A stretch of DNA of 64,000 bases from Candidatus Poriferisocius sp. (GTDB lineage Bacteria; Actinomycetota; Acidimicrobiia; Acidimicrobiales; Bin134), in contig NZ_OZ244791.1 of NCBI RefSeq assembly GCF_965219815.1, positions 3,500,491 to 3,564,490 of the forward strand. Reading direction: 5' to 3'. Under the pieces are notes generated by a model, which saw only the letters and a list, made by a program, of their open reading frames with translations, was not told the origin of the DNA and did no database searches. Positions 19,922-48,591 of the stretch are shown here, piece after piece. The stretch's first letter is position 1. The number at the start of each line of letters is the position of its first letter. The position numbers and the translations under genes are program-made.

Positions 19922-21469
19922 GTGATGCACGACACCGTCGAGTGGCAGGCGCTGAGCACTCACCGAGAGGCACTCCACGGCGTCCACCTGCGGGAATTGT
20001 TCGACGGCGATTCCAACCGGGGCGAGCGGCTTGTGGCCGAGACCGACGGCCTGCTGTTGGACTACTCCAAGAACCGCCTGACTGATGAGACGATGGAGTT
20101 GCTGGCCGCCCTGGCCGACAGGGCTGGGCTACGGCACCGAATTGAGGCCATGTTCAGTGGCGAGCCGGTGAACACCACCGAGTACCGCCCCGCCTGGCAC
20201 GTCGCCCTGCGCCAACCCAACCCGCCCCCTGAAGTCCGCGCTGAATTCGATCACATGGCGGAATTCGCGGCCGAGGCCCGCAGCGGCCGCTGGCAATCGG
20301 TGGTGAACATAGGCATCGGCGGGTCGGACCTGGGGCCGGCCATGGCCGCTGCGGCGCTGGGCGCCTTTGCCGACACTGATTTGGATGTGCGATTCCTGTC
20401 AAACATCGACGGTGCCCACTTCCGGGAGGTCACGCAGGGGCTGGACCCAGACCGGACCCTGTTCATCGTGGTGTCCAAGACGTTCACCACCACCGAAACT
20501 TTGACCAACGCCACCACTGCACGAGCCTGGGTCGCCGACGCGGTGGGCGCAGAGGCCGTCGGCAGCCACTTTGCCGCGGTCACCGCCAGCCCAAACAAGG
20601 CCCAAGACTTCGGTATCGACGCGAATGCCGTCTTCGCCATGTGGGACTGGGTGGGCGGCCGTTATTCACTGGCCTCAGCGGTGGGGCTCAGCCTTATGGC
20701 CGCCGTCGGGCCCGACGCCTTCGCCGACATGCTGGCCGGGATGCACCACATCGACGAGCACTTCCGCACCGCCCCGTGGGCCGAGAACCTCCCCGCCCTG
20801 CTGGGGCTCATCGGAATCTGGAACCGCAACTTCTGGGGTTGGCCCACTTATGCCGTGCTCCCCTATTCCCAGGAGCTGGCCCTGTTCCCCGCCTACATCC
20901 AACAGCTCGACATGGAGAGCAGCGGCAAGTCGGTACAAGCCGACGGCACCCCAGCGGCCACCGCCACCGGCCCGGTGGTGTGGGGCCAGCCGGGAACCAA
21001 CGGTCAACACGCCTTCCACCAACTGCTGCACCAGGGCACCGACATCGTCCCGGTGGACTTCATCGGCTTCTGCCGCTCGAACCACTCCCACATCGAGCAC
21101 CACGACCTGCTCATGTCCAACCTGTTCGCCCAGGCCGAGGCCCTGGCCTTCGGCGCCCCCGACGCTGGCAACCCCCACCAGCAGTTCTCAGGCAACCGGC
21201 CCAGCACCGTCCTTCTTGCCGACCAACTCACCCCCCGCACTCTGGGCCAGCTCGTGGCCCTCTACGAGCACAAGGTGTTCACTCAAGCCACCGTGTGGGG
21301 CATCAACCCCTTCGACCAATGGGGAGTCGAACTGGGCAAGACCCTGGCCACCAACATCGCCGCCGAACTCACCGGCGCAGCCCACCCCAACCCGGCCCGA
21401 GACTCCTCCACCCAATCCCTCATCAACCGCTACGTCAGCCGGGGGCCATCACGAGCCCAGAACAAGTGA
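19922..21469 (+). CDS. pgi: glucose-6-phosphate isomerase
   Basis: 515 aa with GIGGSDLGP, VVSKTFTTTET and GQHAFHQLLHQG motifs. Confidence 0.95.
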   Translation: MMHDTVEWQALSTHREALHGVHLRELFDGDSNRGERLVAETDGLLLDYSKNRLTDETMELLAALADRAGLRHRIEAMFSGEPVNTTEYRPAWHVALRQPNPPPEVRAEFDHMAEFAAEARSGRWQSVVNIGIGGSDLGPAMAAAALGAFADTDLDVRFLSNIDGAHFREVTQGLDPDRTLFIVVSKTFTTTETLTNATTARAWVADAVGAEAVGSHFAAVTASPNKAQDFGIDANAVFAMWDWVGGRYSLASAVGLSLMAAVGPDAFADMLAGMHHIDEHFRTAPWAENLPALLGLIGIWNRNFWGWPTYAVLPYSQELALFPAYIQQLDMESSGKSVQADGTPAATATGPVVWGQPGTNGQHAFHQLLHQGTDIVPVDFIGFCRSNHSHIEHHDLLMSNLFAQAEALAFGAPDAGNPHQQFSGNRPSTVLLADQLTPRTLGQLVALYEHKVFTQATVWGINPFDQWGVELGKTLATNIAAELTGAAHPNPARDSSTQSLINRYVSRGPSRAQNK

Positions 21470-21679: not shown

Positions 21680-24600
21680 ATGGCCGATCCTGACCAGCTG
21701 GTGAAGGGCGCCCGGGTGTGTTTGCCTGGGGACGATGATGTGATGACGCTGGTGCAGGTCACCCAGGGGGCGTTCTGGGAGATCGTCTATCGGGGTTCGG
21801 ACGGCAGCCTGGGCGAGGTCACACTACCTGAGGCTGAAGTACCAGAGATCAAGCTGATGTCATCGGCGGGACCGGTTCGCTTCAGCGGAGATCCCCGCCG
21901 GTTTCGGCTGGGAGTAGAGGCACTGCGGATCGAGAACATGTTTCGTCACGACATGGCGGCGTTGGCCGTGTCGAATATCTCGCCTCTGCCCCATCAGCTT
22001 GACGCGGTGTATGGGTCGCTCTTGCCGGAGCCGGTGCTGCGGTTCTTGTTGGCTGACGATCCAGGCGCTGGCAAGACCATCATGGCTGGGCTTTACATCA
22101 AGGAACTGATGCTGCGCCATGCCGCCGATCGGGTGTTGATCGTGACTCCGGCCAACCTGCGCCCGCAGTGGCAGCGTGAGCTGGCAGAGCGGTTCGACAT
22201 CCACTGCACTCAGTTCGACTCGGCAATGCTGCATGCCCATCCGACACAGAACCCTTGGGATCAGCACGATTTGGTGGTGGTGTCGCGGGATTTGCTCCGG
22301 CGAGAGGAGGTTATGGAGGGGTTTGCCAGCGCCGAGCGGGAGTGGGATTTGGCCATCATCGACGAGGCTCACGGGTTCACGCTCGATGTCGACAGCAAAG
22401 GTCTGATCAAAAAGCGCAGCGAGCGCTACAAGGCGGCTGAAGTGGTGGCCCGGAAGGCGCATCGACTGATCCTGTTGACGGCCACGCCGCATTCGGGCCG
22501 CAACGAGTCAATGTGGGGACTGCTTCGTTTGCTCGACCCGGACGCCTATGGCGACCGCTGCCCTTCAGGCGATGTGCCGCTGAATCCCCACCAGTACCGG
22601 AAGGTTGCCAAGGAAGAGATGGTGGACATGAGGGGCGAAGCTCTGTTCAAGCCCCGTCACCCGCACACGGTGGCCTACAGCCTCGCGGGCGCGGAACGGG
22701 ACTTGTATGAAGCGGTCACCAGCTTTGTGTCCACTGAACTGGCTCGCATCCGAGGCGAGAGCGGCCCACGGGTTGCCGGTTTTGCGCTCACTACCATGCA
22801 GCGGCGGCTGGCGTCGTCGCTCCGGGCCATCAAACGCACCTTGGAGCGCCGTGTCAATCGCTTGGAACAAGCGCTGGAAGACCCCGCGACCTATCTGCGG
22901 AACCGCCAGGAGTTCATCTCCGGCGTCTACGGCGAACAGCATCCCGACGAGTTGGGCGACCTCAACGAAGACGAGCGCTGGGAGATGGAAGAGAGGGCCC
23001 TCGAGGAGTGGTTACCGGGAACCATCACAGAGCTGGAGGAGGAGTTGACCGCATTGCGCCCCCTGCTCATCCAGGCCGAGGAGGCTGAGGCAGCGGGCAC
23101 GGAGGTGAAGCTGAACGAGTTGCTCGAAGTAGTGCGCCAAGAGGGCCTGAGCGACGATCCGTCGGTCAAGTTGCTGATCTTCACTGAGCACCGCGACACC
23201 CTCCACTATCTGGTGGAGAAGTTGTCGCCAGACTTCGATGTGGTTTCCATCCACGGTGGCATGAGGCTGGGAGACCGGATTGCCGCGGAAAGGGACTTTC
23301 GGGAACGGGCCCAGGTCATGGTGGCCACCGAGGCCGCCGGAGAGGGCATCAACCTCCAGTTCTGCCACCTGATGGTGAACTACGACATCCCGTGGAACCC
23401 GAACCGATTGGAACAGCGCATGGGCCGCATCCATCGCATCGGCCAGACCCGCGACGTGCATATCTATAACATGGTTGCCGCCAACACCCTTGAGGGTCAC
23501 GTGCTGGCCACCCTTCTCCAGAAGTTGGAGAACATGGGCCGAGTTCTCGGAGACAAGGTGTTCGACGTGATCGGGGAGACCTTTGCCGGATATCGCCTGG
23601 CAGAGTTGATCGAGCAGGTACTGGCCAAAGAAATCAGCCCAGACGACGCGGCCGAGAGCATCGGAGGAGACCAAGCCGATCCCGAGACGGAGGCGAGGTT
23701 CCGCGAGCTCACCAAAGAGGCGCTGGCGACCCGCTACCTGGATTGGCAATCACAAGCCGAAGCCGCTGCTCGAGCAGCGGAGCGACGACTCCCGCCCGGC
23801 TACATCGAGAAGTTCTTCACCGACGCAGTGGACTTCTTGGGCGGCAAAGTCGAAGATCGGCTCGACCCCGGCACCCTGCGAGTAACCCGCACACCCGACA
23901 AACTGGTAGCGGGGTCTCGGGCCGCTGGTGCAACCCGAGAGGTGTATCCGAGCTATGAGCGCATCACCTTCGACAAAGCAGTTCGCCTGCGGGCACACAC
24001 CAGCGGAGGCGAACACGCCGTCCCAGAGGCTGAACTATGCGGTCCCGGCCATCCCCTCTTCGATGCGGCGCTCAACACCGTGATCGTCCGCACCCGGGCC
24101 GATGTGGAGGCAGGCGCGGTGTTCGCCGCCCCCGACGTTGATGCGCCAACAGTCTTGTTCTTCCTCACCGGAGATTGTATGGACGGCACTGGCGAGATGG
24201 TCCACCGGGCATTTGCCACCGTTGCCGAACCGCAGGGCCAAGCTCTCAGGCCAAGCCGTGAACTGCTGTATGACATGTTCTTCCACGATGCTGAAGCACC
24301 CGAGGTGACTCTTTCTGATGTCGACAAGGTCGTGAACTGGGCGCGGCAACACGAGTTCGAGCCTCACTTCCAGCAAGCCAGCACCGAGCGGACTCGGGTC
24401 GTTCGAATCACCGAGGACTACCTCACCAAGGCATTCGCAGAGATAGCGGCCCGTCAACAAACCACTCTGCTTGACCTTGATGCAGAGGTCGAGCGCGGAG
24501 TGGCTGGCGCAGAGGGTCGCCGCCGACAAGCCGAGCTCGCAGCGGCAGAGACCACCGCGAAACGCGATGAGCGCCTAGACAAGACCAGGCGCTCTCGCAA

Positions 24601-25087
24601 TGTGAAGCGCGGCCCAGTGCGGATCATTGCTACCGCGTTGGTGGTTCCCAGCCTTACCGTGGGCGACGACCGTCCCATTGATACAACCGGCAAATTTTCT
24701 AGCCGTGAGATTGAGCAGATCGCCGTGAGGGAGGCGACGCGCTACGAAACCGATGTGCGCGGAGCAGACATTGTGAAGTCTTTTGAAGCGCAGAAGATCG
24801 GCTTCGACCTTCTTTCCTTGACGGGCATTGACCGGCGCTGCATCGAGGTGAAGGGCCGGGCCGGAGTGGGTGGAGTGGAACTGACCTGGTCGGAGTTTGC
24901 CAAGGCCCTTGAGTTGGGTGAGGACTATTGGCTGTACGTGGTGTTGGACTGCGCCACCCCCAACCCTCGCCTCTATAGGGTGCAGGATCCGGCCAAGGCC
25001 TTGGCCAGCGCTTGGTCGTCCAAACTCGATGTGCGTTATCGAGTTGCCCCCCAGCCGGTCATCGATGCCGCCGAGGCACAGCCATGA
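21680..25087 (+). CDS. SNF2-family helicase fused to a C-terminal DUF3883-like PD-(D/E)xK nuclease-fold domain (1135 aa)
   Basis: Helicase motif I LLADDPGAGKTIMAG, motif II IIDEAHGF, motif III LLTATPHSG and motif VI QRMGRIHRIGQTRDV. The C-terminus reads GFDLLSL...RCIEVKGRAG...DYWLYVV, a D...ExK pattern. Confidence 0.9.
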   Translation: MADPDQLVKGARVCLPGDDDVMTLVQVTQGAFWEIVYRGSDGSLGEVTLPEAEVPEIKLMSSAGPVRFSGDPRRFRLGVEALRIENMFRHDMAALAVSNISPLPHQLDAVYGSLLPEPVLRFLLADDPGAGKTIMAGLYIKELMLRHAADRVLIVTPANLRPQWQRELAERFDIHCTQFDSAMLHAHPTQNPWDQHDLVVVSRDLLRREEVMEGFASAEREWDLAIIDEAHGFTLDVDSKGLIKKRSERYKAAEVVARKAHRLILLTATPHSGRNESMWGLLRLLDPDAYGDRCPSGDVPLNPHQYRKVAKEEMVDMRGEALFKPRHPHTVAYSLAGAERDLYEAVTSFVSTELARIRGESGPRVAGFALTTMQRRLASSLRAIKRTLERRVNRLEQALEDPATYLRNRQEFISGVYGEQHPDELGDLNEDERWEMEERALEEWLPGTITELEEELTALRPLLIQAEEAEAAGTEVKLNELLEVVRQEGLSDDPSVKLLIFTEHRDTLHYLVEKLSPDFDVVSIHGGMRLGDRIAAERDFRERAQVMVATEAAGEGINLQFCHLMVNYDIPWNPNRLEQRMGRIHRIGQTRDVHIYNMVAANTLEGHVLATLLQKLENMGRVLGDKVFDVIGETFAGYRLAELIEQVLAKEISPDDAAESIGGDQADPETEARFRELTKEALATRYLDWQSQAEAAARAAERRLPPGYIEKFFTDAVDFLGGKVEDRLDPGTLRVTRTPDKLVAGSRAAGATREVYPSYERITFDKAVRLRAHTSGGEHAVPEAELCGPGHPLFDAALNTVIVRTRADVEAGAVFAAPDVDAPTVLFFLTGDCMDGTGEMVHRAFATVAEPQGQALRPSRELLYDMFFHDAEAPEVTLSDVDKVVNWARQHEFEPHFQQASTERTRVVRITEDYLTKAFAEIAARQQTTLLDLDAEVERGVAGAEGRRRQAELAAAETTAKRDERLDKTRRSRNVKRGPVRIIATALVVPSLTVGDDRPIDTTGKFSSREIEQIAVREATRYETDVRGADIVKSFEAQKIGFDLLSLTGIDRRCIEVKGRAGVGGVELTWSEFAKALELGEDYWLYVVLDCATPNPRLYRVQDPAKALASAWSSKLDVRYRVAPQPVIDAAEAQP

Positions 25088-27732
25088 CCCGTCGGAAACT
25101 GATCGAGGCGGCGCTCCCGCTGGCTGCGATCAACCACGCATCGGTCACCGACAAGCGCACTCATGACGGACATATCTCCACTCTGCACACCTGGTGGGCT
25201 CGGCGTCCGCTGCCCATGGCCCGGGCAATGGCGGCAGCCGCACTGATCGAAGAGGGAGCGGACGCCAGCGAAGTGCTGTCCAAGATCGGCGACGCGATGC
25301 CGCCCAAGAGACTGCTCTACAACGATGCGGTGGGTTGGCTCAAGAAGCGAATCCGGCAAGACCATTTGCAGCCGCCGAAGGTGCTCGACTGTTTTGCGGG
25401 CGGGGGCGCCATTCCATTGGAGGCCATGCGACTGGGCTGTGACACCACAGCCATGGACCTGAACCCGGTTGCCCATCTGGTGGAGCTGGCCTCTCTTGAC
25501 TATCCCCAGCGCTTCGGGGATACAGACCTGGACGGACGCAACACCCTGGTGGTGGACGTTGAGCGATGGGCGGGGTGGGTGGCCTACAAAACCGAAAAAG
25601 CTGTGGCCCATCTCTATCCCGCCGCCGAAAGCCGCCCGCCGGTGCCCTACTACTTCTGGGTGCGGACCATGCCCAGTCCCGATCCGGGCCGGGAGGTCGA
25701 GATTCCGATTCTCAGCTCTCGGCTCTTGGCTGAGGGGCGTCGCCACGCGTGGGTGACTACCTCGGTGACGCCGGACGGCGTGGACATTGAAGTCCATCAG
25801 GGCGAGCTTCCCGACGACCCGACCCTCAAAGACGGATTCGAGTCGGCAGGAAGCGTTACCTGCCCGATTTCGGCGGTCACCGCTCCCCAGCGCGACGTGA
25901 AGGCCCACGGGACAGCCCACGGTTTCGGTTATCGGCTGTACGCCGTCTGCGACGTTGACGGGCGAGAGCGCACCTACCGCGCACCGACTCCGGTTGAGTC
26001 GGAGGCTCCTGTGTTGGCGGCCGACGAACTTCCTGCCCTGGTCGACGACGAGTTCGACGACGGAACGGCTCGCCTGCCCGATGAACAGGTAGACGAGATC
26101 GGCTACAACAATTTGCAGTTCTTGCCCTATGGCTATCGCACGTGGCGATCGCTGTTCACCGACCGGCAACTGGTGCTCTATGCGACGCTGAGCGCCAACA
26201 TCCGCGCCGCCCATGAGTCGATGCTGGCCGAGGGCATGGCTGCGGACCGGGCCCGGGCGGTGGCCACCTACCTTGCTTTCGCGCTCGACAAGGTGGCGGA
26301 TCGGAACTCGGCGTTCTCCAGTTGGCAGACCGGCGGCGAGAAGATACGAGCGACGTTCACTGGCCAAACGGTGCAGATGCGCTGGGACTTCTGCGAGAAC
26401 TATCCGTTCCGCACCGGGTCTGGTTCTTGGAACGACGCGGTGACGGCAATCGGCAAGGTGATCGAGCACTGCTCACAGACCGGGGAAACCCCGGCGCGGG
26501 TGCTGCGGGGCGACGCCCGGGCCATGCCATTCGCTGATGGTGAGTTTGATGCCGTCCTCATCGATCCGCCCTACTACTTCTCGGTCATGTACTCCGATCT
26601 GTCGGACTTCTTCTATGTGTGGCTCAAGCGGTCGGTCGGCCACCTGTACCCCGAGCACTTCGCCACCCCGTGGACCCCCAAGGCTCAAGAGGTTGTGCAG
26701 AACCGCTGTCGCCCCAGCATGGGGGGCTACATCTCCGAGGAGGAGTTCGACCGGCGGCTGGCCGACGCGTTGTCGGAAGTGGCCCGGGTGGTCAAGCCCG
26801 ACGGGGTGGTCGCTCTGGTGTTCGCCCATACTGCGGTCAAGGCGTGGGAGAAGTTGCTGCGCGCGCTGCGAATCGCGGGCTTGAGCGTTACCACCTCGTG
26901 GCCTATCCGCTCGGAGATGGCTGGCCGGCCAGTCGCCCATGTCAAGGCGACCTTGGCTAGCTCGGTGGTGCTGGTGTGCCGGCCCAACAATGAGGCCGGC
27001 GATGCGTTCTACGACGAAGTAGAGGCCGAGCTGAATCGGGTGGTCGGTCAGCGGTTGAATGAGTTCGAGGACTTGGGGTTGCGGGGCGCGGATTACTTCG
27101 TGTCGGCCATCGGCCCAGCCTTCGAGGTATTCGCCAGCCACCGCTCGGTCACCCGACTGGATGGGACTGAGGTGTCCATTGGCGATCTCATGGAACTGGC
27201 CCGCAAGGCTGTTGCCCGCCACGCGATGGGACGTCTGCTCGCGGCCGATACGCTCGGCGTGCTTGACGACCGATCCCTGCTCTACGTCACCTGGCGATGG
27301 GCATACCTGACGGTGCCCGTCCCCGCCGATGAGGCCATCAAGCTCTCCCGGGCATTCTCGGTAAGCCTTGACGATGTGACCATGCCCGGCGGGATGGTCA
27401 GCCGCAAGGGCAAGAACTTCTCACTGCTCGGCCCCCACGAGCGCCCCGACGTTCGGCTGCGGCCCGACAGCCCGTTGATCGACGTTCTGCATGTGGCCTC
27501 GCAGCTTTGGGATGCGGGCCGGGCCAACGAAGTGATTGAAGTGCTTGCTGCCTCGGGGTGTGGGACCATGCCCGGGTTCTGGGATGTAGCCCGTGCTTTG
27601 GCAGAAGTGCTTCCTGAAGGGCAACGGGAGCGCACCATGTACCAAGCGCTCGCCACGTCACAGCAGCGTCTGGCCGAGGCGGCGGCAAAGCAGCCGGCAA
27701 CAAGCTATGAAGAACTCCAGCTTTCCTTCTGA
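25084..27732 (+). CDS. DUF1156-type DNA methyltransferase (N6-adenine/N4-cytosine class, DPPY motif)
   Basis: The N-terminus MTRRKLIEAALPLAAINHAS...LHTWWARRPL is the DUF1156 signature. SAM motif I is VLDCFAGGGAIPLEA and motif IV is VLIDPPYY. The ATG at 25084 overlaps the helicase stop as ATGA. Confidence 0.88.
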   Translation: MTRRKLIEAALPLAAINHASVTDKRTHDGHISTLHTWWARRPLPMARAMAAAALIEEGADASEVLSKIGDAMPPKRLLYNDAVGWLKKRIRQDHLQPPKVLDCFAGGGAIPLEAMRLGCDTTAMDLNPVAHLVELASLDYPQRFGDTDLDGRNTLVVDVERWAGWVAYKTEKAVAHLYPAAESRPPVPYYFWVRTMPSPDPGREVEIPILSSRLLAEGRRHAWVTTSVTPDGVDIEVHQGELPDDPTLKDGFESAGSVTCPISAVTAPQRDVKAHGTAHGFGYRLYAVCDVDGRERTYRAPTPVESEAPVLAADELPALVDDEFDDGTARLPDEQVDEIGYNNLQFLPYGYRTWRSLFTDRQLVLYATLSANIRAAHESMLAEGMAADRARAVATYLAFALDKVADRNSAFSSWQTGGEKIRATFTGQTVQMRWDFCENYPFRTGSGSWNDAVTAIGKVIEHCSQTGETPARVLRGDARAMPFADGEFDAVLIDPPYYFSVMYSDLSDFFYVWLKRSVGHLYPEHFATPWTPKAQEVVQNRCRPSMGGYISEEEFDRRLADALSEVARVVKPDGVVALVFAHTAVKAWEKLLRALRIAGLSVTTSWPIRSEMAGRPVAHVKATLASSVVLVCRPNNEAGDAFYDEVEAELNRVVGQRLNEFEDLGLRGADYFVSAIGPAFEVFASHRSVTRLDGTEVSIGDLMELARKAVARHAMGRLLAADTLGVLDDRSLLYVTWRWAYLTVPVPADEAIKLSRAFSVSLDDVTMPGGMVSRKGKNFSLLGPHERPDVRLRPDSPLIDVLHVASQLWDAGRANEVIEVLAASGCGTMPGFWDVARALAEVLPEGQRERTMYQALATSQQRLAEAAAKQPATSYEELQLSF

Positions 27733-27744
27733 TAGGCAGACCCC

Positions 27745-30552
27745 ATGACCGATTTGGCACCGTGGCTTGATATCGCCTGTCCCCACGCAGACATCCGCGA
27801 CGGATCGTTCGACGAATCTCTGTTTGCCGCCGACCTCGGCTTGGTGGCGAACGGGATGGGTCCAGATGACTACGTGGATGCCGAGTTGTTCGCGGCCAAG
27901 ACGTACCTGACCGAGAATCTGCGATCAGTGCTGGTGGAGGTGGGCAATCGACTGAGTGGCGACGCGGGATCGGCGGCAGTGTTCCGGATGCAGACCGAGT
28001 TCGGCGGGGGCAAGACCCACACTCTGCTGGCCGCGTACCACCTGTTCCGCGCTCCCGAGCAGGTTGCCGGCACGCAACTAGGAATAGATCTTGCCGCAGC
28101 CTTGAGAACCGGAAGTTTGCCCAATGCCCGAGTTGCGGTGTTGGACGGCTCCGCGCTGACCGTCGATCCCGAGACCATGCCCGATGGCTCCGTGGTGCGA
28201 TCTTTCCTCGGGCATTTGGCCTGGAGGTTGGGCGGTGCCGCGGCGTATGAGACGGTCCGGGCCAAAGATGAGGGCCTGCGCGGCACTTCCACAGTGGAGA
28301 TGGTCAAGCTTCTCAGCGAAGCGGCACCGTGCCTGATCTTGCTGGACGAGACCTTGGAGTACCTCAATAAGGCATTGGCGGTTGGCTCGGTTGACGGCAA
28401 CCTGGCCGCCACCACGCTCACGGTGATCAAAGAACTCTGTACCGCCGCCTCAAACGTGCCCGGCGTCGCGGTGGTCGCTACCCTTACCTCCTCGCGCTTA
28501 GAGGACTACTCGACGGTTGCTGGCCAGGAGATGGCGGAGCGGCTGTCCAAGGTCGTGGGCCGCATCGAGAACATTGTCACCCCAGTGGAGGGCGACGACA
28601 TTTTCCCCATCCTGCATACTCGCCTGTTCGAGACCATCGGCAGTTTGGAGCAGCGGCAGGCGGTGGCCGACGCCTATGGCGCCTGCTACGACCAGATGGG
28701 CGATGTGCTCCCCCAGTCCTACCGCGACCCCTCCTACCGAGACCGCATCCGAGGTGCCTATCCGTTCCACCCGGAGTTGATCGACCTGCTTACCAATCGC
28801 TGGGGGTCGCTGTCGGGATTCCAGCGCACCCGAGGGGCGTTGCGAACATTGGCCCACACGGTGAAGGCACTAGCCCAGAGCAATCATCAGGGGCTGCTCA
28901 TCGGCCTTGGCGATGTGCCTTTGGCCGATGACGGTGTGCGGGCTGAGGTCATTCGATTTGCTGGAGAGTCGTACAAGTCGGCCCTCAACGCCGACATCAT
29001 CCGGCCCGATTCCAAGGCTGCGGTGGAGGACGAGCGCCGGGGAGGAGAGATCAAGAGAAATCGGGTTGCGGTGGGACTGGCCACGACGGCGTTCCTCAAC
29101 AGCTTCGGCTCCGACCGGGTGCTTGGCGCTTCACCACCACAGATGCTCGTCGGCGTCGCCCAGCCGCTGCCCGGCCTGTCCCGAGGGCTGCTCGACGACG
29201 TGCGCGACGCTCTGGCCGGATCGCTGTGGTACATGCGCTATGAGGGCGGCCGCTATCGGTTCACGACCGAGCCCAATCTGAACAAGGTGATCGTGGAACG
29301 GGAGGGCGCCGTCGGAGACGGGGAGATCACCGCGCTGTTGAGAGAAACGGTCGGCCACATCGCCGGGCCGGTGGCCCCGTTCCGGGTAGTCACCCATGTC
29401 GTCGAGCCCAACGACGTGATTGACGAACCCCGCCTCACCCTCGGCGTGCTCGCCCCACACCGGGCAGTCGGCAACCAACCAGGCAGCACCGCTGTCGAGG
29501 CAGATGAAGTGGCGGGCGCGGTGCTCAACACCGGGCGAGGGTCGTCTCGGTCGAACAAGAACGCGCTTGTGTTGGTTGCGGCCGACGCCGGTGGTGTGAC
29601 CAAGGCTCGCCAGGTTGCTCGCACGGTGGTGGCCATGCGGGACATCACCAGGGACAGCATCCGGGTTAAGCGGTTCAACCAGGACCAGCGTGACCAGCTG
29701 GAAGCCCGGCTGAGTGCGGTAGAAGAGCGCCTGCCCCAGGAGGTGGTGATGGCCTACCGGCACCTCATCCTGCTCGGGCCGGACGGCAATGGCGGCGTCC
29801 GGGTTGAGACTGTTGACCTCGGCCCGGCTCGGGTGGGCGACACCATTTGCCAGCGGGTGGTTGACCACCTCAAGGCCACTGACCGGCTTATCGACACCAC
29901 GCTCGCACCAGCGGCCTTGCTCACCGACCGTTTCGGCGTGATCGGCTCGGACGAGCCAGTAGTCGAACTCGACCGCCTGTTGGACTACTTCTACCGGCTG
30001 CCCCGCTTACCGAAGATCGCTAGTTCCGATGTGCTGCGCCGTTGTCTGGCGCAGGGGGTAAGTGCCAGCCTGTTCGGCTTGGCATCAGGTGCTTCCTGGG
30101 ACGCCGCTGATGCCGTGCTGCGCTTTGGGGAGCCGCTGGACCCGACCGAGATCCAGTTCCAACCCGGCACCTGGTTAGCACGCGCCGCTGACATCAAGCC
30201 TCTGATTGAGGCTCGCCGTCCGAGCGAGGAGTCTGAAGAAGCCAAACCAACAACTGGTTCAGAGCCTGAGGGCGAGACCACTCCTACGGAGCACCCAGAG
30301 AACCAGCAGTCTGGTGTCAAGGAAGGCCAAGATCCGACCAGAGTCACCCTCACCACACGCCAGATCCCTGCCGACAAAATCCGCGATGTGGTCAAGGTCG
30401 CCATTATGCCCCTCGCTGCCACCGGAGCAGACGTGACCATCAACGTCGAAGTCACTGCCACCCACCCTGATGGCATCCCCCACACCACACTGGACCTGAC
30501 CGTCGCCGAAGGATTGCGCCAACTCGGCCTCGATCACGATCTCACCAAGTAG
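27745..30552 (+). CDS. DUF499-type P-loop ATPase (935 aa)
   Basis: Walker A-like FGGGKTHTLLAAYHL and Walker B LILLDETLEYL. The gene starts 13 nt after the methylase stop. Confidence 0.85.
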   Translation: MTDLAPWLDIACPHADIRDGSFDESLFAADLGLVANGMGPDDYVDAELFAAKTYLTENLRSVLVEVGNRLSGDAGSAAVFRMQTEFGGGKTHTLLAAYHLFRAPEQVAGTQLGIDLAAALRTGSLPNARVAVLDGSALTVDPETMPDGSVVRSFLGHLAWRLGGAAAYETVRAKDEGLRGTSTVEMVKLLSEAAPCLILLDETLEYLNKALAVGSVDGNLAATTLTVIKELCTAASNVPGVAVVATLTSSRLEDYSTVAGQEMAERLSKVVGRIENIVTPVEGDDIFPILHTRLFETIGSLEQRQAVADAYGACYDQMGDVLPQSYRDPSYRDRIRGAYPFHPELIDLLTNRWGSLSGFQRTRGALRTLAHTVKALAQSNHQGLLIGLGDVPLADDGVRAEVIRFAGESYKSALNADIIRPDSKAAVEDERRGGEIKRNRVAVGLATTAFLNSFGSDRVLGASPPQMLVGVAQPLPGLSRGLLDDVRDALAGSLWYMRYEGGRYRFTTEPNLNKVIVEREGAVGDGEITALLRETVGHIAGPVAPFRVVTHVVEPNDVIDEPRLTLGVLAPHRAVGNQPGSTAVEADEVAGAVLNTGRGSSRSNKNALVLVAADAGGVTKARQVARTVVAMRDITRDSIRVKRFNQDQRDQLEARLSAVEERLPQEVVMAYRHLILLGPDGNGGVRVETVDLGPARVGDTICQRVVDHLKATDRLIDTTLAPAALLTDRFGVIGSDEPVVELDRLLDYFYRLPRLPKIASSDVLRRCLAQGVSASLFGLASGASWDAADAVLRFGEPLDPTEIQFQPGTWLARAADIKPLIEARRPSEESEEAKPTTGSEPEGETTPTEHPENQQSGVKEGQDPTRVTLTTRQIPADKIRDVVKVAIMPLAATGADVTINVEVTATHPDGIPHTTLDLTVAEGLRQLGLDHDLTK

Positions 30553-30611
30553 GCTAGATCCGGGTATTCGATTATCGGTGTAAGCAACACAAACTGGAAT
30601 AGGAGAAAGAG

Positions 30612-30746
30612 ATGGCAAAAGGGGAAACAGTACAAGAGGGCATTAGGGTGAACGCCCAAAGACAGGGTCAAAAAAAGGTGCAGAATGCTCCAGCACCTCC
30701 GGTTGCCAAGAGCAGGCCCAAGCCTCCTGTTTCAAAGAAGAAATAA
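30612..30746 (+). CDS. small Lys/Pro-rich basic peptide (44 aa), hypothetical
   Basis: Sequence MAKGETVQEGIRVNAQRQGQKKVQNAPAPPVAKSRPKPPVSKKK. A strong AGGAG Shine-Dalgarno sequence (30601-30605) lies 6 nt upstream of the ATG. The stop is 4 nt before the next ATG. It lies in the low-GC segment and is below the ORF-track length cutoff. Confidence 0.4.
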   Translation: MAKGETVQEGIRVNAQRQGQKKVQNAPAPPVAKSRPKPPVSKKK

Positions 30747-30750
30747 CTGA

Positions 30751-31392
30751 ATGCCAGCAACTGTACTTAGCCTGGCAATTGCCGGACTAGTAGTCTTGCC
30801 AGGACTAAGCTACCTGGCGGGCAGAGAATCTCAGTATCCTACTCAAAAGATCAGAGGCTTTAGAGAGACTGCGACAATAGTATTTGCAGGGATTGTCTCA
30901 GTTGTAATTGGCTTGATTGCATTCGCAATCGTCCGTGCATCAATCCCAACGCATACACCCGATATCGGGGCATTGCTTCGCATGCCGGAATCATACGTTC
31001 GAGAACACCTACCATATGTCTCTGGGTGGGCATTAGCTATATTAGCGTTTTCATCTCTTGGCTCATTCCTCTTTGGAAAATTCTCCCCTAGATTACCAAG
31101 CAATATTTCAGTCGAGTCAGCCTGGTGGTCTGCATTTGAATCCATACCAGACTCAGACAAAGTACAGGTATATATTGACTGTTACCTGACAGACGATTCC
31201 ATACTATCAGGATATCTCTATAGCTACAGCGTGGATATAGAAGAGACAATGGACAGAGAGATCTGCTTAGTCGCTCCCGTAACATACAAGGCATCAAAAC
31301 CATCTTTAGCAGAAGAATTGGAGGACGCAGGTATTGTGACAGTCAGTGCATCTCGAATAAAGTTTGTTTCAGTCACTTACTTCAATGTGTAG
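30751..31392 (+). CDS. hypothetical membrane protein (3 predicted TM helices plus a soluble C-terminal domain of about 100 aa), low-GC gene
   Basis: Hydrophobic segments ATVLSLAIAGLVVLPGLSYLAG, TATIVFAGIVSVVIGLIAFAIV and VSGWALAILAFSSLGSFLFGKF. GC in sampled 60-nt lines is about 42-53%, versus about 65% in flanking genes. Confidence 0.65.
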   Translation: MPATVLSLAIAGLVVLPGLSYLAGRESQYPTQKIRGFRETATIVFAGIVSVVIGLIAFAIVRASIPTHTPDIGALLRMPESYVREHLPYVSGWALAILAFSSLGSFLFGKFSPRLPSNISVESAWWSAFESIPDSDKVQVYIDCYLTDDSILSGYLYSYSVDIEETMDREICLVAPVTYKASKPSLAEELEDAGIVTVSASRIKFVSVTYFNV

Positions 31393-31410
31393 ATAAAGGA
31401 TCAAACACTG

Positions 31411-32676
31411 ATGCAGACTATGTATGAGGAACACCCCTTATTGGTGAGCCCCTGGTACCATCAGACCGAATTGCTCCGATTGATTGCCGGTGGCGAGAAC
31501 TCGCGCGTGGAGTTCATGCGGGATGACGTGCAGCCGGGGAAGTTCGCCACGGTGCTCGCTGGACTGCTGAACCTCGACGGCGGGCATGTGCTGCTCGGCG
31601 TCGAGGACGACGGCGGCGTCTCCGGGCTATCGCGTGCGGTTGCAAGAGCCGAAGAGTGGATCATGCAGGTTGCTCGCGATCACCTGGAGCCCTCCATCAT
31701 CCCGAACTGGGAGGTTATCGAGTCTGACGGCGGCATCATGGTCGGCATCGTAACCGTGCCGGCCAACGCACCCGACAAGCCGTACAAGTCCAAACAGGGG
31801 TCGCACTGGGTTACCAAGGTCCGTGTCGGCACCACCACACGCGATGCGACTCGTGAGGAGGAACAACGGCTGTACCAGCAGTCGGGTGGACTCCGCTACG
31901 GCCTCAAGCCGGTACCAGGAGCCAGTGCTGCCGATCTCGACACACGACGCCTTCAGGATTACTTCGCCCGCATCCGCGGCGATGCGGAGATGCCCAGCCC
32001 CAATTCAGAGTCGTGGCGCAGGCTGCTCTGCAACCTTGAGCTTGCCACCGAAACCGGTGGTGAAACGTACGCCACCGTCGACGGGATGCTCCTGTTCGGC
32101 CTGAACACAGGGTGATTCTTGCCGCAATGCGGAATTCGAGCGGTGTGCTTCCCGGGCCAAGAGTCCGACTATGCCACGAGATCCGACGAGAGCATCAAGG
32201 GCCCGCTAGTGGCTTTGCGCTCAGTCGACGGTGAGTTAGTCGAAACCGGAGTCGTGGAAAGGGCTCTCGACTTCGTCCGTCGCAACACGGGTGCCTCCGC
32301 AGCGCTGGAGGACGGTCGCCGTGTCGAGCGCCCCGATTTCCCTGAGCCAGCCATTCGCGAGGTTGTGGTCAATGCACTTGTACACCGCGACTACAGCATC
32401 ACTGGGACCGATGTGCTGTTATCGGTCTTCGACGATCGAATCGAAGTGCAGAGTCCTGGGAGCCTGCCGAACACCATCAGCGTCGAGGGCATGCGTGAAG
32501 GAGCCCGCTATGCGCGTAACCAGGTGATGATGAGCATCATGCGTGACTACGGCTACGTCGAGGGGCTGGGCATGGGCATCCGCCGACAGGTCATCCCCGC
32601 CATGGCACAGCACAATGGCACCGAACCGGACTTCTCCGAAGAAGAATCCCGCTTCACCGTCTCCCTGAGGAAGTAG
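31411..32676 (+). pseudogene. AlbA_2 (Schlafen-like divergent AAA) plus HATPase_c_4 putative DNA-binding protein, interrupted by one in-frame TGA (32113-32115)
   Basis: ORFs 31411..32115 and 32119..32676 are in the same frame. The N-terminal part has GENSRVEFMRDD and the C-terminal part has VVNALVHRDYS...IEVQSPGSLP. The protein reads ...LLFGLNTG*FLPQCGIRAV... across the stop. Confidence 0.75.
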
Positions 32677-32725: not shown

Positions 32726-34575
<1,850 letters not shown>

Positions 34576-39739: not shown

Positions 39740-41797
39740 TCATGCCTCCTTGGTGAGCAGGGGCTCGGGCAACGGACGGGCGTACACAACCACCAGACGT
39801 TGAGTGGCCCGGGTCATGGCCACATACAGAGCTCGCATCCCCTTGGGGAGCTTCTCGCAGATGTCGGCCGGCTCCACCACGATGGCGGTGTCCACCTCAA
39901 GCCCCTTCACCAACTCCACCGGCACGATGGTCACCCGGGACTCCAGGCCTCGCTCATACACCAAACCGTGATCGACGTCGGCAGAGGTGAGGGCCTCAGA
40001 GATGGCATCGGCCAGTGCGTTGTGGCAGATCACCGCCAGGTTCCCGTTGGCCAACGCGCTGAGCTCGGCCTTTACCTCCCTGACGACGGCGGCGGTCAGG
40101 CTGCTGGGGCTGGGTTCGCTGTCTTGGACACTGCCTTGTCCGTTGCCCTGGCCGTTGCCGGAGGCTGGGGCTTGATGGGCAACCACGGGCACGAATCGGG
40201 GAGGGAGGCCCTCAGTGCGGATTGATTGAGGCGGAACCAGGCCGGGCATGGCGGCGTCGAGCACCTTGGCAGCCACTTCCATGATGGGCTCGGGTAGGCG
40301 ATACCCGATGGTCAACTCGGAAAATCGGGTGTCGACGTGGTCGGGGAGGTGCTCGATCACGCTGTCCCAGGAGTCGTGCCCCCATGCCGAGGTGGCCTGG
40401 GCGATGTCGCCTACCACGGTCATCGACCCGTTAAGCGAGCGGCGGCTGATCATCCGGAGCTGCATGGGCGACAGATCTTGGGCCTCATCCACCACGATGT
40501 GGCCGTAGGTGCGAATCGAGTCAGACAGCTTGTGGCCGGGCCGGGGGCCCAACAGGGCCAGGGCCTCATCCAACAAGGGGGCGTCGTCGGCCGTCCACAC
40601 CACTTCAGAGGCATGGGGTTGTCGGGAGCGGTAGAGCAGGTCGGTTTCCTCTGGAGTCAACACCGACGCCGTCGCTGAGCGGAGCAGCGCGGGAGAACCG
40701 AACAGGTCGTGCAGCAGGTGGGATGGGGTGAGCACTGGCCACATCCACTCCAGGGCCTCCCGCAGTTCGATGCTGCCGTGGAGTTGTTCGCGCACCGCCT
40801 CCATATCAGGAGCGGGGGAATCGGTGCGGGCGCCACTATCGGCCAGGTGCTGGTACACCTGTTCTTCCACAAAGCGACGGGCCCGGTTGTGGGTGCGGAA
40901 CCGCTTGCGGGCTTGGCGCACGATCTCGGCGCTCTGGTCCACGGTGAGCCGGAGCCGACGCAGGCCAAACCCCACCGTCACGTCGGCACGCAGCGGGCGC
41001 TGGCGATCCCGGCGAGCCCGGCGCAGCACCGTGATCATTCGCAGATCGCCCTTGATGCGGGAGATACGAGGGTTGTCTAGACCCTTGACCCGCGTACCAG
41101 GAAGCAGATCGGCCAGCATTGACACCTCCACGCCGGCCTCGCCCAGCGATGGAAGCACCTGCTCGATATAGGTCAAAAACAGGCGGTTGGGGCCGAGCAC
41201 CAGCATTCCCTGGCCTTCGAGGGGAAAGCGGTGGGTATAGAGCAGATAGGCGGCCCGGTGGAGAGCGGCCACCGTCTTGCCGGTGCCGGGACCGCCTTGC
41301 ACCACGAGGAGTCCGGACAGCGGGGAGCGGATAATGGCGTCCTGCTCGATCTGGATGGTGGCGGCCGCGTCGGCGAGGCGGCCGGTGCGGCCGGCTTCCA
41401 AACCGGCTCGAAGGGTGGCCTCCCCCACCAGCGGCATCCTGCCTCGGCCGTTGGTTTCGCCGAAGTACTCGTCTTCCACCCCCAGCAGCTCCCGGCCTCT
41501 GGTCACGAAGTGGCGGCGTCGGGACAGGCCCATGGGCTCGCTCCCGGTGGCTCGGTAGAAGGCCTCGGCCGCCGGGGCCCGCCAGTCGATGGTCACCGGC
41601 TCCTGGTCGTCATCCCACACCGCCACCCGGCCCACATAGAGCTGGTCGCCGCCCTGCTCATCGCTCCAGTCGAGGCGACCGAATACCAGCGAGGCGTCAC
41701 CGATGTCCAGAACGCTGAGGCGGGTGCTTATCGAATCCCAAATGATCTCCCGCTCATAGCGGGCCTGATGGGTGCCGCCCGCGCCCACCTCAACCAT
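39740..41797 (-). CDS. helD: HelD-like UvrD-family helicase (helicase IV / RNAP-associated)
   Basis: Contains VVQGGPGTGKTVAALHRAAYLLY, VVDEAQDLSPMQ and YVAMTRATQRL, with an N-terminal extension as in HelD. Confidence 0.85.
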   Translation of the reverse strand: MVEVGAGGTHQARYEREIIWDSISTRLSVLDIGDASLVFGRLDWSDEQGGDQLYVGRVAVWDDDQEPVTIDWRAPAAEAFYRATGSEPMGLSRRRHFVTRGRELLGVEDEYFGETNGRGRMPLVGEATLRAGLEAGRTGRLADAAATIQIEQDAIIRSPLSGLLVVQGGPGTGKTVAALHRAAYLLYTHRFPLEGQGMLVLGPNRLFLTYIEQVLPSLGEAGVEVSMLADLLPGTRVKGLDNPRISRIKGDLRMITVLRRARRDRQRPLRADVTVGFGLRRLRLTVDQSAEIVRQARKRFRTHNRARRFVEEQVYQHLADSGARTDSPAPDMEAVREQLHGSIELREALEWMWPVLTPSHLLHDLFGSPALLRSATASVLTPEETDLLYRSRQPHASEVVWTADDAPLLDEALALLGPRPGHKLSDSIRTYGHIVVDEAQDLSPMQLRMISRRSLNGSMTVVGDIAQATSAWGHDSWDSVIEHLPDHVDTRFSELTIGYRLPEPIMEVAAKVLDAAMPGLVPPQSIRTEGLPPRFVPVVAHQAPASGNGQGNGQGSVQDSEPSPSSLTAAVVREVKAELSALANGNLAVICHNALADAISEALTSADVDHGLVYERGLESRVTIVPVELVKGLEVDTAIVVEPADICEKLPKGMRALYVAMTRATQRLVVVYARPLPEPLLTKEA

Positions 41798-41988
41798 CCC
41801 CTTAAGCGACAGCGCCCGCTCCCGGGCCGTCTCAAGGGCTTGGTGGGCCCGATCGATATATGTCTGTTCCGCGGCGTGATCCGGATGAATCGGAGACTCC
41901 TCAGACTGAGTTCAAAACCAGTGAACGTTCAAGTCTAATACGAAATTGACGGGTTAGGGCGTGGCAGGCTCGCCGATCTCCGTGAGAC

Positions 41989-47202: not shown

Positions 47203-47275
47203 AGTGCGGCGGCCTGCCTAATCGTGTCCGGCAGACAATTCTTGTGGCACGGTGGGGATGCTAGACGTTGACAGT

Positions 47276-47297
47276 TATGTGTCGGCTATGTGTCGGC
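47276..47297. repeat. tandem 11-bp repeat TATGTGTCGGC x2 in the divergent intergenic region
   Basis: Read directly. Neighbouring short inverted repeats are CTCGAC/GTCGAG (47313/47327) and TTTCTC/GAGAAA (47362/47377). Confidence 0.8.
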
Positions 47298-47424
47298 TTT
47301 GCCCTGCCAACACTCGACTGAAAATTGTCGAGATTCATATGTTTTGACTGCAAATTGGATGTTTCTCATTGTTCACGAGAAATGTCATGTAGATACTGTC
47401 ACTGGTGTCGGTAGACTGGTGGGC

Positions 47425-48591
47425 ATGGAATCTGGGACGTTGACCAGGCGAAACGCCAGCACTGGCGTGCATGTTGATGCGGTGGAGATCGCCGGGTTGG
47501 ACGATGCTTCCCTGGATTTGCGGTTGCGTCAGATCGGGCGGGCTCGGAATCAGTTGGATGGGTTCTTGGCGGAGGCGGTGGCGGAAAAGAAGCGACGCAC
47601 CAGCCCGTATGACACGGCCAACACATTGAAATCTGAGCTCCGCCAGTCGGGCCAGCAGGCCCAACGCACCATGCGCGACGCTGAACAGTTGGAATCGCTG
47701 GCGGCCACTCGGGGAGCGCTCTCTGACAGCCGCATCACCTCCGAGCACGCCCGCATCCTGGGAACTGCGGCACAAGCAGGGCCCCTGGACGAGGACAAGA
47801 TGCTGGCCGCGGCCGAGCACCAGACCCCCGAGCAATTGCGGCGCACGGTACGCGAGCACCAAGACGAGATGTCTGGCGATACAGACGGTGCCAAGCGGCT
47901 CGAGCGCCAACGGAGAAAACGCACCGCCAGCTTCACCGAGCAGGACGACGGCATGTGGCGACTGTTCGCTCTGTTCGACCCGGTCGCTGCGCAAGGCATC
48001 CGGGCTGCGCTCAACCACAAGACCGACATGGCCTGGCACGCCACCACCGGCCGTGAGCGGCTCGAAGCCCGCCATCGCCGGGCCGATGCAATCTCTGGGC
48101 TGCTGACCCGTACTTCAGACGGAGAGACCGAGCAGCCCCAGCCGACCAGCCTGTTGATCCTGGCCGACTACGACGCCATCGACCGTCAACTTGGCAATCC
48201 TCGGTTGGCCGATGGCACCCCGTTGCCTCAAGATGAGTTCCGCAAGCTGGCCTGCGACGCCGAAATCCTCACCGGGATCTTCGATGCCGACCTGCAATGC
48301 CTCTCACTGGGCCGCCAACGCCACCCCAGTCCCCAACTTCGAGCCGCCATTACTGCTCGGGACCAAGGCTGCATCGGCTGTCGAGCCGAGCCCGAGTGGT
48401 GCGTCTCCCACCACATCATCCACTGGCAAGACGACGGCCCCACCCAATCCGACAACCTCGTGCAGCTCTGCCACGACTGCCACCACAAAGTCCACCACCG
48501 CAACTGGGATGTCGAACATCACCCCGACACCGGCCGCCCCCACCTACGACCCCCCTGGCAACAACCCCCCGAACCACCGCCCAGACGCTGA
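47425..48591 (+). CDS. DUF222-type HNH endonuclease (actinobacterial 13E12-repeat-like family)
   Basis: The N-terminal DUF222-like helical region (LDGFLAEAV...) is followed by a C-terminal HNH (CIGCRAEPEWCVSHHIIHWQDDGPTQSDNLVQLCHDCHHKVHH). ATG 47425 is chosen as the start. Confidence 0.85.
   Translation: MESGTLTRRNASTGVHVDAVEIAGLDDASLDLRLRQIGRARNQLDGFLAEAVAEKKRRTSPYDTANTLKSELRQSGQQAQRTMRDAEQLESLAATRGALSDSRITSEHARILGTAAQAGPLDEDKMLAAAEHQTPEQLRRTVREHQDEMSGDTDGAKRLERQRRKRTASFTEQDDGMWRLFALFDPVAAQGIRAALNHKTDMAWHATTGRERLEARHRRADAISGLLTRTSDGETEQPQPTSLLILADYDAIDRQLGNPRLADGTPLPQDEFRKLACDAEILTGIFDADLQCLSLGRQRHPSPQLRAAITARDQGCIGCRAEPEWCVSHHIIHWQDDGPTQSDNLVQLCHDCHHKVHHRNWDVEHHPDTGRPHLRPPWQQPPEPPPRR

Follow-up and report, generated by a model that had tools for sequence, protein, structure and literature searches.

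Does a pair of low-GC genes that lies directly behind an anti-phage operon belong to that operon, or is it foreign DNA that arrived recently? The question is raised by a stretch of 64,000 nt from Candidatus Poriferisocius sp. (Acidimicrobiia; contig NZ_OZ244791.1, positions 3,500,491 to 3,564,490), referred to throughout as the window, in which positions 30553–31410 hold a small open reading frame (ORF) for a 44-aa peptide and a gene for a 213-aa membrane protein, immediately 3′ of the hmaA, hmaB and hmaC genes of an Hma system. The original prediction, made from the letters of the DNA, took this stretch for a recent, separate horizontal acquisition within a defence island, and supposed that the peptide and the membrane protein act together. 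Comparison of related loci shows the two genes to be a conserved module, in which a basic, proline-rich peptide is combined with a translationally coupled protein of three transmembrane (TM) helices and a cytoplasmic, acidic Sm-like barrel. The most plausible reading of the pair is that of a membrane-acting accessory with a small partner.

Composition, position and age of the pair

The drop in GC content is as sharp as had been described. In 300-nt windows GC amounts to 0.43–0.53 over 30450–31499 against 0.60–0.68 on both flanks, and in 600-nt windows (mean 0.645, standard deviation (SD) 0.037) the segment 30553–31410 is the only one of the 64 kb below the mean minus 3 SD, with a minimum of 0.437, about 5.6 SD under the mean. 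The dip begins at about 30500–30550 and ends at about 31400–31450, and these edges coincide with gene boundaries. On the forward (+) strand it contains, in order, a 59-nt spacer between hmaC and the small ORF (30553–30611), whose sequence carries the Shine-Dalgarno motif AGGAG; the small ORF (30612–30746), which by translation encodes the 44-aa peptide MAKGETVQEGIRVNAQRQGQKKVQNAPAPPVAKSRPKPPVSKKK and is recognised also by its homologous peptides; a 4-nt junction, CTGA (30747–30750), read from the sequence between the peptide stop and the next start; and the gene of the 213-aa membrane protein (30751–31392), identified by its match to Pfam family PF19865 (DUF6338), its GC content and a model made with AlphaFold2 (AF2). 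The peptide start lies 59 nt past the HmaC stop at 30552, so the pair does follow the ATPase gene directly on the same strand.

The order HmaA, HmaB, HmaC, peptide, DUF6338 recurs in four diverged lineages, represented by the window and L020 (a 95% relative that shares the window's arrangement), by L001 and L021, by L007 and L022, and by L023. In the other Acidimicrobiia (L001–L006/L021, L007/L022 and L023) the DUF6338 homologue directly 3′ of HmaA-HmaB-HmaC is about 73% identical to that of the window. What lies 3′ of the pair differs by lineage, being a broken Schlafen-like gene in the window and L020, a TIR-like gene in L001, an AMP-binding gene on the opposite strand in L007 and a short-chain dehydrogenase gene in L023. 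Between the window and L001 identity is 90% for HmaB, 85% for HmaC, 73% for DUF6338 and 64% for the peptide; between L001 and L007 it is 96% for both HmaB and HmaC, 88% for DUF6338 and 93% for the peptide. As all four genes give the same topology, the pair has evidently co-diverged with HmaB and HmaC. Taken as a comparison of gene order and sequence, these data show the pair to be the fixed 3′ end of the hmaA-hmaB-hmaC operon in this Acidimicrobiia lineage.

A sharp drop in GC with its edges on gene boundaries is what one would expect had foreign low-GC DNA been inserted into this island recently and independently, and this is how the stretch had first been explained. We nevertheless regard this explanation as very improbable, as four diverged Hma lineages carry the pair at this one position and the pair co-diverges with them, and as its composition has persisted. 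When the window is compared with L001, synonymous divergence (dS) reaches about 1.6 in the peptide ORF and at least 2 in DUF6338, with about 1.05 in hmaC, so that synonymous sites are saturated, yet the GC content at third codon positions (GC3) is 0.31–0.40 in DUF6338 and 0.44–0.49 in the peptide ORF across the lineages, compared with 0.72–0.77 in the Hma genes and 0.85–0.90 in pgi and thiC; the DUF6338 gene of the window itself has a GC content of 0.447 and a GC3 of 0.397. Since a neutral compositional difference should decay over a divergence of this extent, the low GC must be under maintenance of some kind, and together with the four lineages and the co-divergence this indicates that the link between the pair and the hmaABC triad is old. 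Insertion scars were looked for around the pair: flanking repeats gave chance-level matches only, and the only inverted repeat, an imperfect one of 13 nt, is no more than chance would give and has its right arm in a gene that is missing from the other lineages. The 64-kb window contains no tRNA gene, hence no tRNA integration site, and no integrase gene lies near the pair.

The low GC may be kept by selection for slow translation or for rare codons, by a silencer that targets AT-rich DNA, or by exchange with a pool of low-GC sequences. DUF6338 genes have a GC content below that of their own locus in every locus examined. On the Clavibacter plasmid pCL-A6099 (L017), where the DUF6338 gene has a GC content of 0.574 and its surroundings 0.632, a gene of the Lsr2 family, which silences AT-rich DNA in actinobacteria, is found at 3114–3461, about 2.5 kb from the DUF6338 gene.

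The peptide, the junction and the DUF6338 protein

The 44-aa peptide contains 8 K, 3 R and 6 P, has a net charge of +9 and is predicted to be disordered. A homologous ORF of 44–54 codons, intact and with an ATG start, lies upstream of DUF6338 at all 10 sampled loci at which the DUF6338 protein is at least 39% identical to that of the window (the window, L020, L001, L007, L023, L008, L024, L015, L026 and L027), and in most copies it is preceded by a GGAG/AGGA-type site. These peptides share a core, GQK-x(3-4)-[NT][AR]P.PPV ... [KR]P.PP (or PPPP), followed by a basic tail, and G19, Q20, K21 and four proline positions are invariant in the alignment. The ratio of nonsynonymous to synonymous divergence (dN/dS) is 0.14–0.20 for the window against L001, L007 and L023, 0.11 for L008 against L024, and 0.06 for L026 against L027; all of these values were obtained at saturated dS and are rough for an ORF of some 44 codons, though they come from three independent comparisons. 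Judged by its sequence conservation, the small ORF is a real gene under selection at the protein level. The original prediction had made its case depend on such conservation and on co-occurrence of the two ORFs, and the presence of the peptide at all 10 loci bears out that it forms a genuine pair with the membrane protein in a defence island. In a profile search of 5.8 billion proteins the peptide was called as a gene only twice, and both records appear to come from contigs that bear DUF6338.

The geometry of the junction in the window fits translational coupling of the peptide and DUF6338. As had been noted, AGGAG (30601–30605) lies 6 nt ahead of the peptide ATG, and the TAA stop of the peptide (30744–30746) is followed by 4 nt, CTGA, and then by the ATG of DUF6338 at 30751; a TGA in the DUF6338 frame abuts this ATG. 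L001 and L007 share the junction AAGAAGAAATAACTGAATG unchanged, and L020 and L023 differ from it by a single base. The two ORFs overlap by 1 nt in L015 and are 3–6 nt apart in L008 and L024, so that the distance from peptide stop to DUF6338 start is −1 to 6 nt in 8 of the 10 loci, the others being L026 (47 nt) and L027 (23 nt). The frame relation of the two ORFs is +1 in the window, and in L008 they share a frame; since it varies by lineage there is no conserved recoding, and a programmed frameshift or read-through joining the ORFs was rejected.

The last approximately 30 nt of the small ORF (AAGCCTCCTGTT..AAGAAGAAATAACTGAATG, window 30700–30753) have hardly changed as DNA between the window, L001, L007 and L023, unlike the remaining sequence of the small ORF, which is synonymously saturated. 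A conserved RNA structure at the junction was looked for and not found (the consensus energy is −5 kcal/mol and the single-sequence z-score −1.25), and no Rfam family matched there, the sole match in the neighbourhood being the TPP riboswitch ahead of thiC. The minimum-energy fold has the Shine-Dalgarno sequence of the peptide paired with CCUCC from the Pro codons, although this fold is not significant (z = −1.25).

These features bear on the possibility that the small ORF is a leader that acts mainly in cis. Ribosomes finishing the small ORF would then go on to translate DUF6338 from its weak site, and Pro-Pro or poly-Pro codons before the stop would tie this coupling to EF-P or prolyl-tRNA, such that production of the membrane protein would track translation status, like that of the products controlled by Salmonella mgtP and mgtL. 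The peptide ORF has the strong AGGAG whereas DUF6338 is preceded only by the weak purine-rich AAGAAGAAA, the stop-to-start distances are short at most of the loci, the 3′ end of the ORF is near-invariant in DNA despite a dS of about 1.6, and the ORF has PPPP(P) 3–5 codons ahead of its stop in L008, L024 and L026, with only PP pairs (APPV, KPPV) in the window, L001, L007 and L023. There are also precedents, in that mgtP (PMC3641672) and mgtL, whose translation depends on EF-P and prolyl-tRNA (PMC3641672; PMC5299641 for EF-P control of the mgt genes), are likewise short ORFs with consecutive Pro codons just 5′ of a membrane-protein gene. We still consider a leader acting mainly in cis a rather unlikely account of the small ORF. 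The mgtP and mgtL leaders have 17–18 codons and form alternative RNA hairpins, whereas the ORF family of the window has 44–54 codons, is under protein-level selection and lacks a conserved RNA switch; mgtP tolerates scrambling outside its Pro codons, whereas here the non-proline residues G19, Q20 and K21 are invariant and dN/dS is 0.06–0.20 over the whole ORF. The gaps in L026 and L027 are moreover poor geometry for strict coupling, and proline-rich peptides encoded in front of a DUF6338 gene in Pseudomonas stutzeri, to which we return below, accumulate to the extent of 44–114 spectral matches each in mass spectrometry (PMC10433244). A role as leader and a role of the peptide in trans can coexist.

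The 213-aa protein, which the original prediction could not place in any family, is a full-length member of PF19865 (E = 1.7e-30; 106.6 bits against a cut-off of 26.5), with its residues 1–210 aligned to profile positions 1–201 of 205. PF19865, DUF6338, is a Pfam family without known function. All 97 aligned relatives match it as well, and an exhaustive profile search (E ≤ 0.001) gave 940 clusters at 50% identity, which makes the family widespread, if not huge. The protein has no match in PADLOC, NCBIfam or PHROG, and a sequence search of the PDB gave nothing significant, with a sequence-profile hint to the Sm protein 4xq3 at E = 1.8.

The AF2 model made from the 97-sequence alignment has a pLDDT of 94.4 and a pTM of 0.82, against a pLDDT of 60 for a poor model from a shallow alignment. 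Model and hydropathy agree on the three hydrophobic helices and the C-terminal soluble domain (about 90 aa) that the original prediction had described. The membrane part (30754–31083, + strand), delimited by AF2 secondary structure, hydropathy and the positive-inside rule, consists of TM1 (residues 2–28), TM2 (36–64) and TM3 (87–111); short helices at 72–85 lie in the external loop between TM2 and TM3, and the basic cytoplasmic loop between TM1 and TM2 carries a conserved FRET motif with the invariant E39. After TM3 a linker leads to helix 124–130, the first element of the Sm-like (LSm/SH3-like) domain (31120–31386, + strand; defined by Foldseek, charge and invariant columns), which continues with strands 138–146, 151–159, 170–180, 195–199 and 203–212. 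As modelled, the C-terminal domain is an Sm/LSm fold, an N-terminal helix followed by five bent β-strands. Foldseek against the PDB gives only Sm/LSm proteins among its best 50 matches (E = 3e-3 to 4e-2, target-normalised TM-score 0.5–0.77), the first being 6f9w, a peptide-bound LSm domain. In 95 of the 97 family members loop 1 and the segment after TM3 together have more K+R than the N-tail and loop 2, which by the positive-inside rule gives an N-out/C-in topology with the Sm-like domain in the cytoplasm. P17, E39, W125 and R169 are invariant across the alignment, the last two in the region of the Sm-like domain, and this domain is acidic in the window protein (6 K+R against 15 D+E). One relative, P0024 (346 aa), has as residues 1–71 a proline-rich N-terminal extension (...VEEKRGGQTSPQVWPVPPV...) that is fused in frame to the usual MPTT start and resembles the peptides of L026 and L027; it is either a natural peptide–DUF6338 fusion or a gene-calling read-through, and the extension is at odds with the N-out topology of the remaining family.

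The Hma operon, its island and other DUF6338 loci

The contiguous + strand genes at 21680–30552 correspond to the definition of Hma, recently renamed Type-1 DUF499-centred BREX-related (BR) system (PMC12839542); anti-phage activity has been shown for HmaA (PMC11232893). In the window hmaA (21680–25087, +) encodes an SNF2 helicase with a C-terminal NOV_C (PD-(D/E)XK-type) nuclease (PADLOC HmaA, E = 1.8e-195; Pfam SNF2-rel_dom, Helicase_C and NOV_C), and hmaB (25084–27732, +) a DUF1156 N6-adenine methyltransferase (PADLOC HmaB, E = 1.6e-111; Pfam DUF1156 and methyltransferase domains). Mechanical calling starts hmaB at the TTG at 25012; the orthologues, however, have 882 aa, and an ATG at 25084 shares the sequence ATGA with the hmaA stop, so 25084 is likely the true start. 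The third gene, hmaC (27745–30552, +), encodes a DUF499 AAA+ ATPase (PADLOC HmaC, E = 1.5e-139 over residues 4–930; Pfam DUF499) without the N-terminal HEPN domain that is fused to HmaC in about half of Type-1 systems. The spacer between hmaC and the small ORF contains zero terminator-like sites, which makes co-transcription of the pair with hmaABC likely, and no promoter-like site.

The island is bounded by core-genome genes, with pgi (19922–21469) on the left and a TPP riboswitch and thiC (32815–34575) on the right; the riboswitch (Rfam RF00059, 32720–32830, + strand, 58.1 bits, E = 4.7e-10) lies directly 5′ of thiC. An AlbA_2/Schlafen-like gene adjoining the pair, as had been noted, is indeed present directly 3′ of it (31411–32676, +; Pfam SLFN_AlbA_2 and HATPase_c_4 on two same-frame ORFs), but it is broken by an in-frame TGA at 32113–32115. 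L020 has CGA (Arg) at this place in its gene (4732–5997) and a stop of its own at codon 10; because the two stops differ, the gene appears, from these sequences, to be decaying independently in two close relatives, unless the stops are assembly errors. It is absent from L001, L007 and L023 and thus is variable cargo outside the conserved block. In L001 a third low-GC gene follows DUF6338 (8720–9442, +; GC 0.40, GC3 0.36), which encodes a TIR-like, nucleoside-deoxyribosyltransferase-like effector (PADLOC 'Effector TIR', E = 7.7e-11). With a TIR-like effector at this place in L001 and a Schlafen-like gene in the window, the site 3′ of the pair collects variable defence cargo. Further downstream the window holds a possible second defence-like cluster at 39740–48591, with a milder GC dip at 45.5–47.7 kb, composed of genes for a 685-aa UvrD-like protein (39740–41797, −), a 1737-aa DEAD-UvrD helicase fusion (41989–47202, −) and a 433-aa HNH protein (47290–48591, +).

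In a sample of about 16 independent loci that has no statistical background and is therefore suggestive, most contexts of DUF6338 are mobile elements or defence neighbourhoods, including Hma in four lineages. A type I restriction-modification system adjoins DUF6338 in L026 and lies about 4 kb away in L008; the neighbours are HsdR, AIPR and a caspase-kinase in L013, and an HKD-SNF2 helicase, NgoFVII and Fic in L015. In L027 the gene lies in a relaxase/TraG element, and four plasmids carry it. From named genomes and metagenomes, tuned scans brought up members of the close clade only. In L028 (6001–6906) and L029 (6001–6903) DUF6338 stands immediately 3′ of a tyrosine integrase gene and has no small ORF upstream; the L029 copy lies inside an integrative conjugative element of actinomycetes that also carries RepSA, FtsK/SpoIIIE and Xis-like genes, and the proteins of this subclade end in a basic tail of about 90 aa, in which Pro, Arg and Gln are frequent. 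With regard to a phage origin, tblastn gave no match in 50,697 phage genomes, and IMG/VR held no relative for the two subclades tested. The only viral protein matching the whole DUF6338 fold is BFVD A0A8S5PTE5 (Siphoviridae sp. ct96x5, 197 aa; Foldseek E = 2.6e-6, TM-score about 0.47), a match between models which hints that some phages or prophages carry a DUF6338 relative.

Possible roles of the pair

We tentatively favor, at somewhat less than an even chance, the reading that the pair is a peptide-restrained membrane effector and serves as an accessory or backup of Hma. Sm-type domains typically form hexameric or heptameric rings, and Sm/SH3-like barrels are known peptide binders; these properties, the pairing of charges between the peptides (+7 to +12) and the DUF6338 C-terminal domains (−7 to −16), and a gene order and coupling like those of antitoxin and toxin are the reasons for this preference. 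As Sm-type domains normally form rings, DUF6338 probably oligomerises. By analogy it would assemble through this domain into a ring with 15–21 TM helices in total, which could disturb the membrane or open it. The peptide, whose synthesis precedes and accompanies that of the membrane protein, would bind the acidic cytoplasmic domain and hold DUF6338 inactive in the manner of an antitoxin. Its supply would hang on continued translation through the Pro-Pro motifs, and should this supply fail, for example when a phage that escapes Hma takes over, the membrane protein would be released and the cell shut down. In this way the pair would back up Hma by acting on the membrane, in the role that HEPN or Schlafen RNases have in related systems.

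Such a place in the system would not be without parallel. In published surveys (PMC11232893, PMC12839542) hma loci are described as insertion hotspots, with extra effectors (HEPN, PIN, Schlafen, TOPRIM/OLD) embedded in or beside them, and BR systems are said to commonly recruit backup suicide effectors (PMC12839542). The pair occupies the position typical of such auxiliary effectors, whereas the backup effectors described so far are nucleases. The searchable text of the same two papers does not mention a membrane protein, an Sm-like domain, DUF6338 or a small ORF, and the pair is not among the components of the PADLOC Hma model; it is a lineage-specific addition to Hma and not a listed component.

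The gene order and tight coupling are those of a type II toxin-antitoxin or abortive-infection operon, with a small upstream gene joined to a larger downstream one by a gap of 4 nt in the window and a comparably short one at most other loci. The likeness extends to the occurrence on plasmids, integrative elements and defence islands and to the faster evolution of the small partner (64% against 73% identity). Unlike a type II antitoxin, however, the peptide is predicted to be disordered and lacks a DNA-binding fold, and the putative toxin is a membrane protein. A further likeness is to Cap15 and the TM effectors of CBASS and Pycsar, which also combine N-terminal TM helices with a small C-terminal cytoplasmic β-barrel; the barrel of Cap15 is a ligand sensor that brings about oligomerisation and disruption of the membrane (PMC10419184). 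Cap15 has two TM helices and responds to a nucleotide signal, whereas DUF6338 has three, an Sm fold and a peptide as partner. A Cap15-type effector was rejected, as Cap15 (7N35) is outside the best 50 structural matches, no PADLOC Cap15 or PycTM profile matches at E ≤ 0.01, and none of the loci contains a nucleotide cyclase.

Several points weigh against a peptide-restrained effector. Neither the peptide nor the DUF6338 protein has a match in the PADLOC library of defence models, and the sample of contexts is small. In the 46% clade (L008, L024) the pair lies beside cobW, at a stable chromosomal site without Hma. The peptide is missing upstream of more distant DUF6338 genes (L012–L014, L017, L019, L028–L030), the distant actinomycete genes without it having 26–37% identity, and L016 and L018 carry acidic small ORFs in place of the basic peptide; DUF6338 can thus work without this peptide. 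The acidic C-terminal domain is general in the family, with a mean charge of −6.8 over the 97 members, which makes the charge complementarity weak evidence and weakened it as a clade-specific argument. Finally, oligomerisation and membrane damage are drawn by analogy from the fold alone, and binding of the peptide to the Sm-like domain is putative. The small ORFs of L016 (5839–5997, Streptomyces chartreusis plasmid) and L018 (5834–5989, Rhodococcus rhodochrous plasmid) are annotated in RefSeq, encode 51–52 aa and end 3 and 11 nt before DUF6338; their products are strongly acidic, with the tails DDDSTTDEGS and SASDLDDD.

Some of these points would also fit if DUF6338 were a general small membrane protein, for instance a channel or a protein of stress response or envelope, that is frequent on mobile DNA and simply rides at the end of the Hma island with the peptide as its subunit or chaperone. 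The loci L012 and L030, which have neither defence nor mobile neighbours, and the cobW site point in this direction, as do the moderately large size of the family, whose genes mostly stand alone, and the lack of matches in the defence-model libraries. Three TM helices followed by an Sm-like domain are also the core plan of MscS-type channels, and the resemblance includes the N-out/C-in topology and the cytoplasmic position of the β domain; it is a likeness in plan only, and DUF6338 lacks the C-terminal α/β domain of MscS. Homology to MscS was looked for and rejected, with an hhalign probability of 0.14% against an MscS gene of L015 and no Pfam MS_channel match among the 97 members at E ≤ 1. 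A passive role is further countered by the other sampled contexts, most of which are defence islands or mobile elements, and by the retention of the pair directly 3′ of hmaC, with no terminator between them, down to 73% identity; because everything 3′ of the pair was replaced in the meantime, this retention exceeds what co-transfer would lead one to expect. We see the passive accessory, too, as a rather unlikely explanation.

That no described system has this composition, as the original prediction stated, agrees with the absence of matches in PADLOC, NCBIfam and PHROG, and we found DUF6338 mentioned in a single published paper, on P. stutzeri (PMC10433244). Its 'operon 9' encodes SEP1, SEP5 and SEP2, proline-rich peptides of 36–47 aa with PPPPKK-like tails, directly 5′ of a DUF6338 gene, and its authors judged the peptides strain-specific and possibly products of de novo genes (PMC10433244). 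The operon shares the design described here, a short basic proline-rich ORF followed by DUF6338, but no Hma context is reported for it, and the peptide family of the window, in contrast to peptides called strain-specific, has been kept across diverged lineages. Against the window peptide profile the three peptides score z = 0.24, −2.17 and −0.74 (2000 composition-matched shuffles per peptide). As these scores are not above those of the shuffles, homology of SEP1, SEP2 and SEP5 to the window family is not demonstrable, and the likeness is one of shared architecture.

The peptide could also itself be the active agent, a cationic proline-rich, ribosome-blocking toxin like the proline-rich antimicrobial peptides, with DUF6338 as its membrane immunity or export protein in the style of a bacteriocin operon. 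The peptides are indeed cationic, proline-rich and 36–54 aa long, they are found on mobile elements, and a small peptide followed by a membrane protein is the order of bacteriocin–immunity pairs. In P. stutzeri three tandem copies precede the DUF6338 gene, and an antimicrobial role has been raised by the authors (PMC10433244). A leader or signal sequence, a processing enzyme or an ABC exporter was however found in none of the loci, the small ORFs coupled to DUF6338 on the Streptomyces and Rhodococcus plasmids are acidic, and most DUF6338 genes have no such peptide. The G-Q-K core is, to our knowledge, not a motif of proline-rich antimicrobial peptides either, and we find a toxic peptide distinctly unlikely.

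We also put forward, as a more specific and quite unlikely extension of the peptide-restrained effector, that the pair could be an abortive-infection trigger that reads translation status, with a membrane-anchored Sm-ring held closed by a short-lived poly-proline peptide, and that coupled small disordered ORFs could be the general partner of DUF6338 across phyla. Since synthesis of the peptide needs EF-P and ongoing translation, it would act as the sensor, and a phage that escapes Hma and shuts down host translation would free a membrane-depolarising effector. The small partner ORFs would be basic and proline-rich in some clades and acidic in others.

For the DUF6338 family, with its approximately 940 clusters, the results provide a confident fold, a topology, a conserved peptide partner that had escaped annotation and a reproducible genomic association with an anti-phage system, and the proline-rich peptides that were read as de novo in P. 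stutzeri turn out to have counterparts in another phylum. The persistence of a very low GC3 inside a high-GC operon, despite saturated divergence, is a small puzzle in its own right; a possible reason is that a harmful gene is under selection to be expressed slowly or kept silent. We suggest that the pair is a good candidate for a new membrane-acting defence accessory. If it is a membrane-acting backup effector, it would add a non-nuclease arm to DUF499/BREX-related immunity and would offer a compact case of control over a membrane effector by a small peptide.

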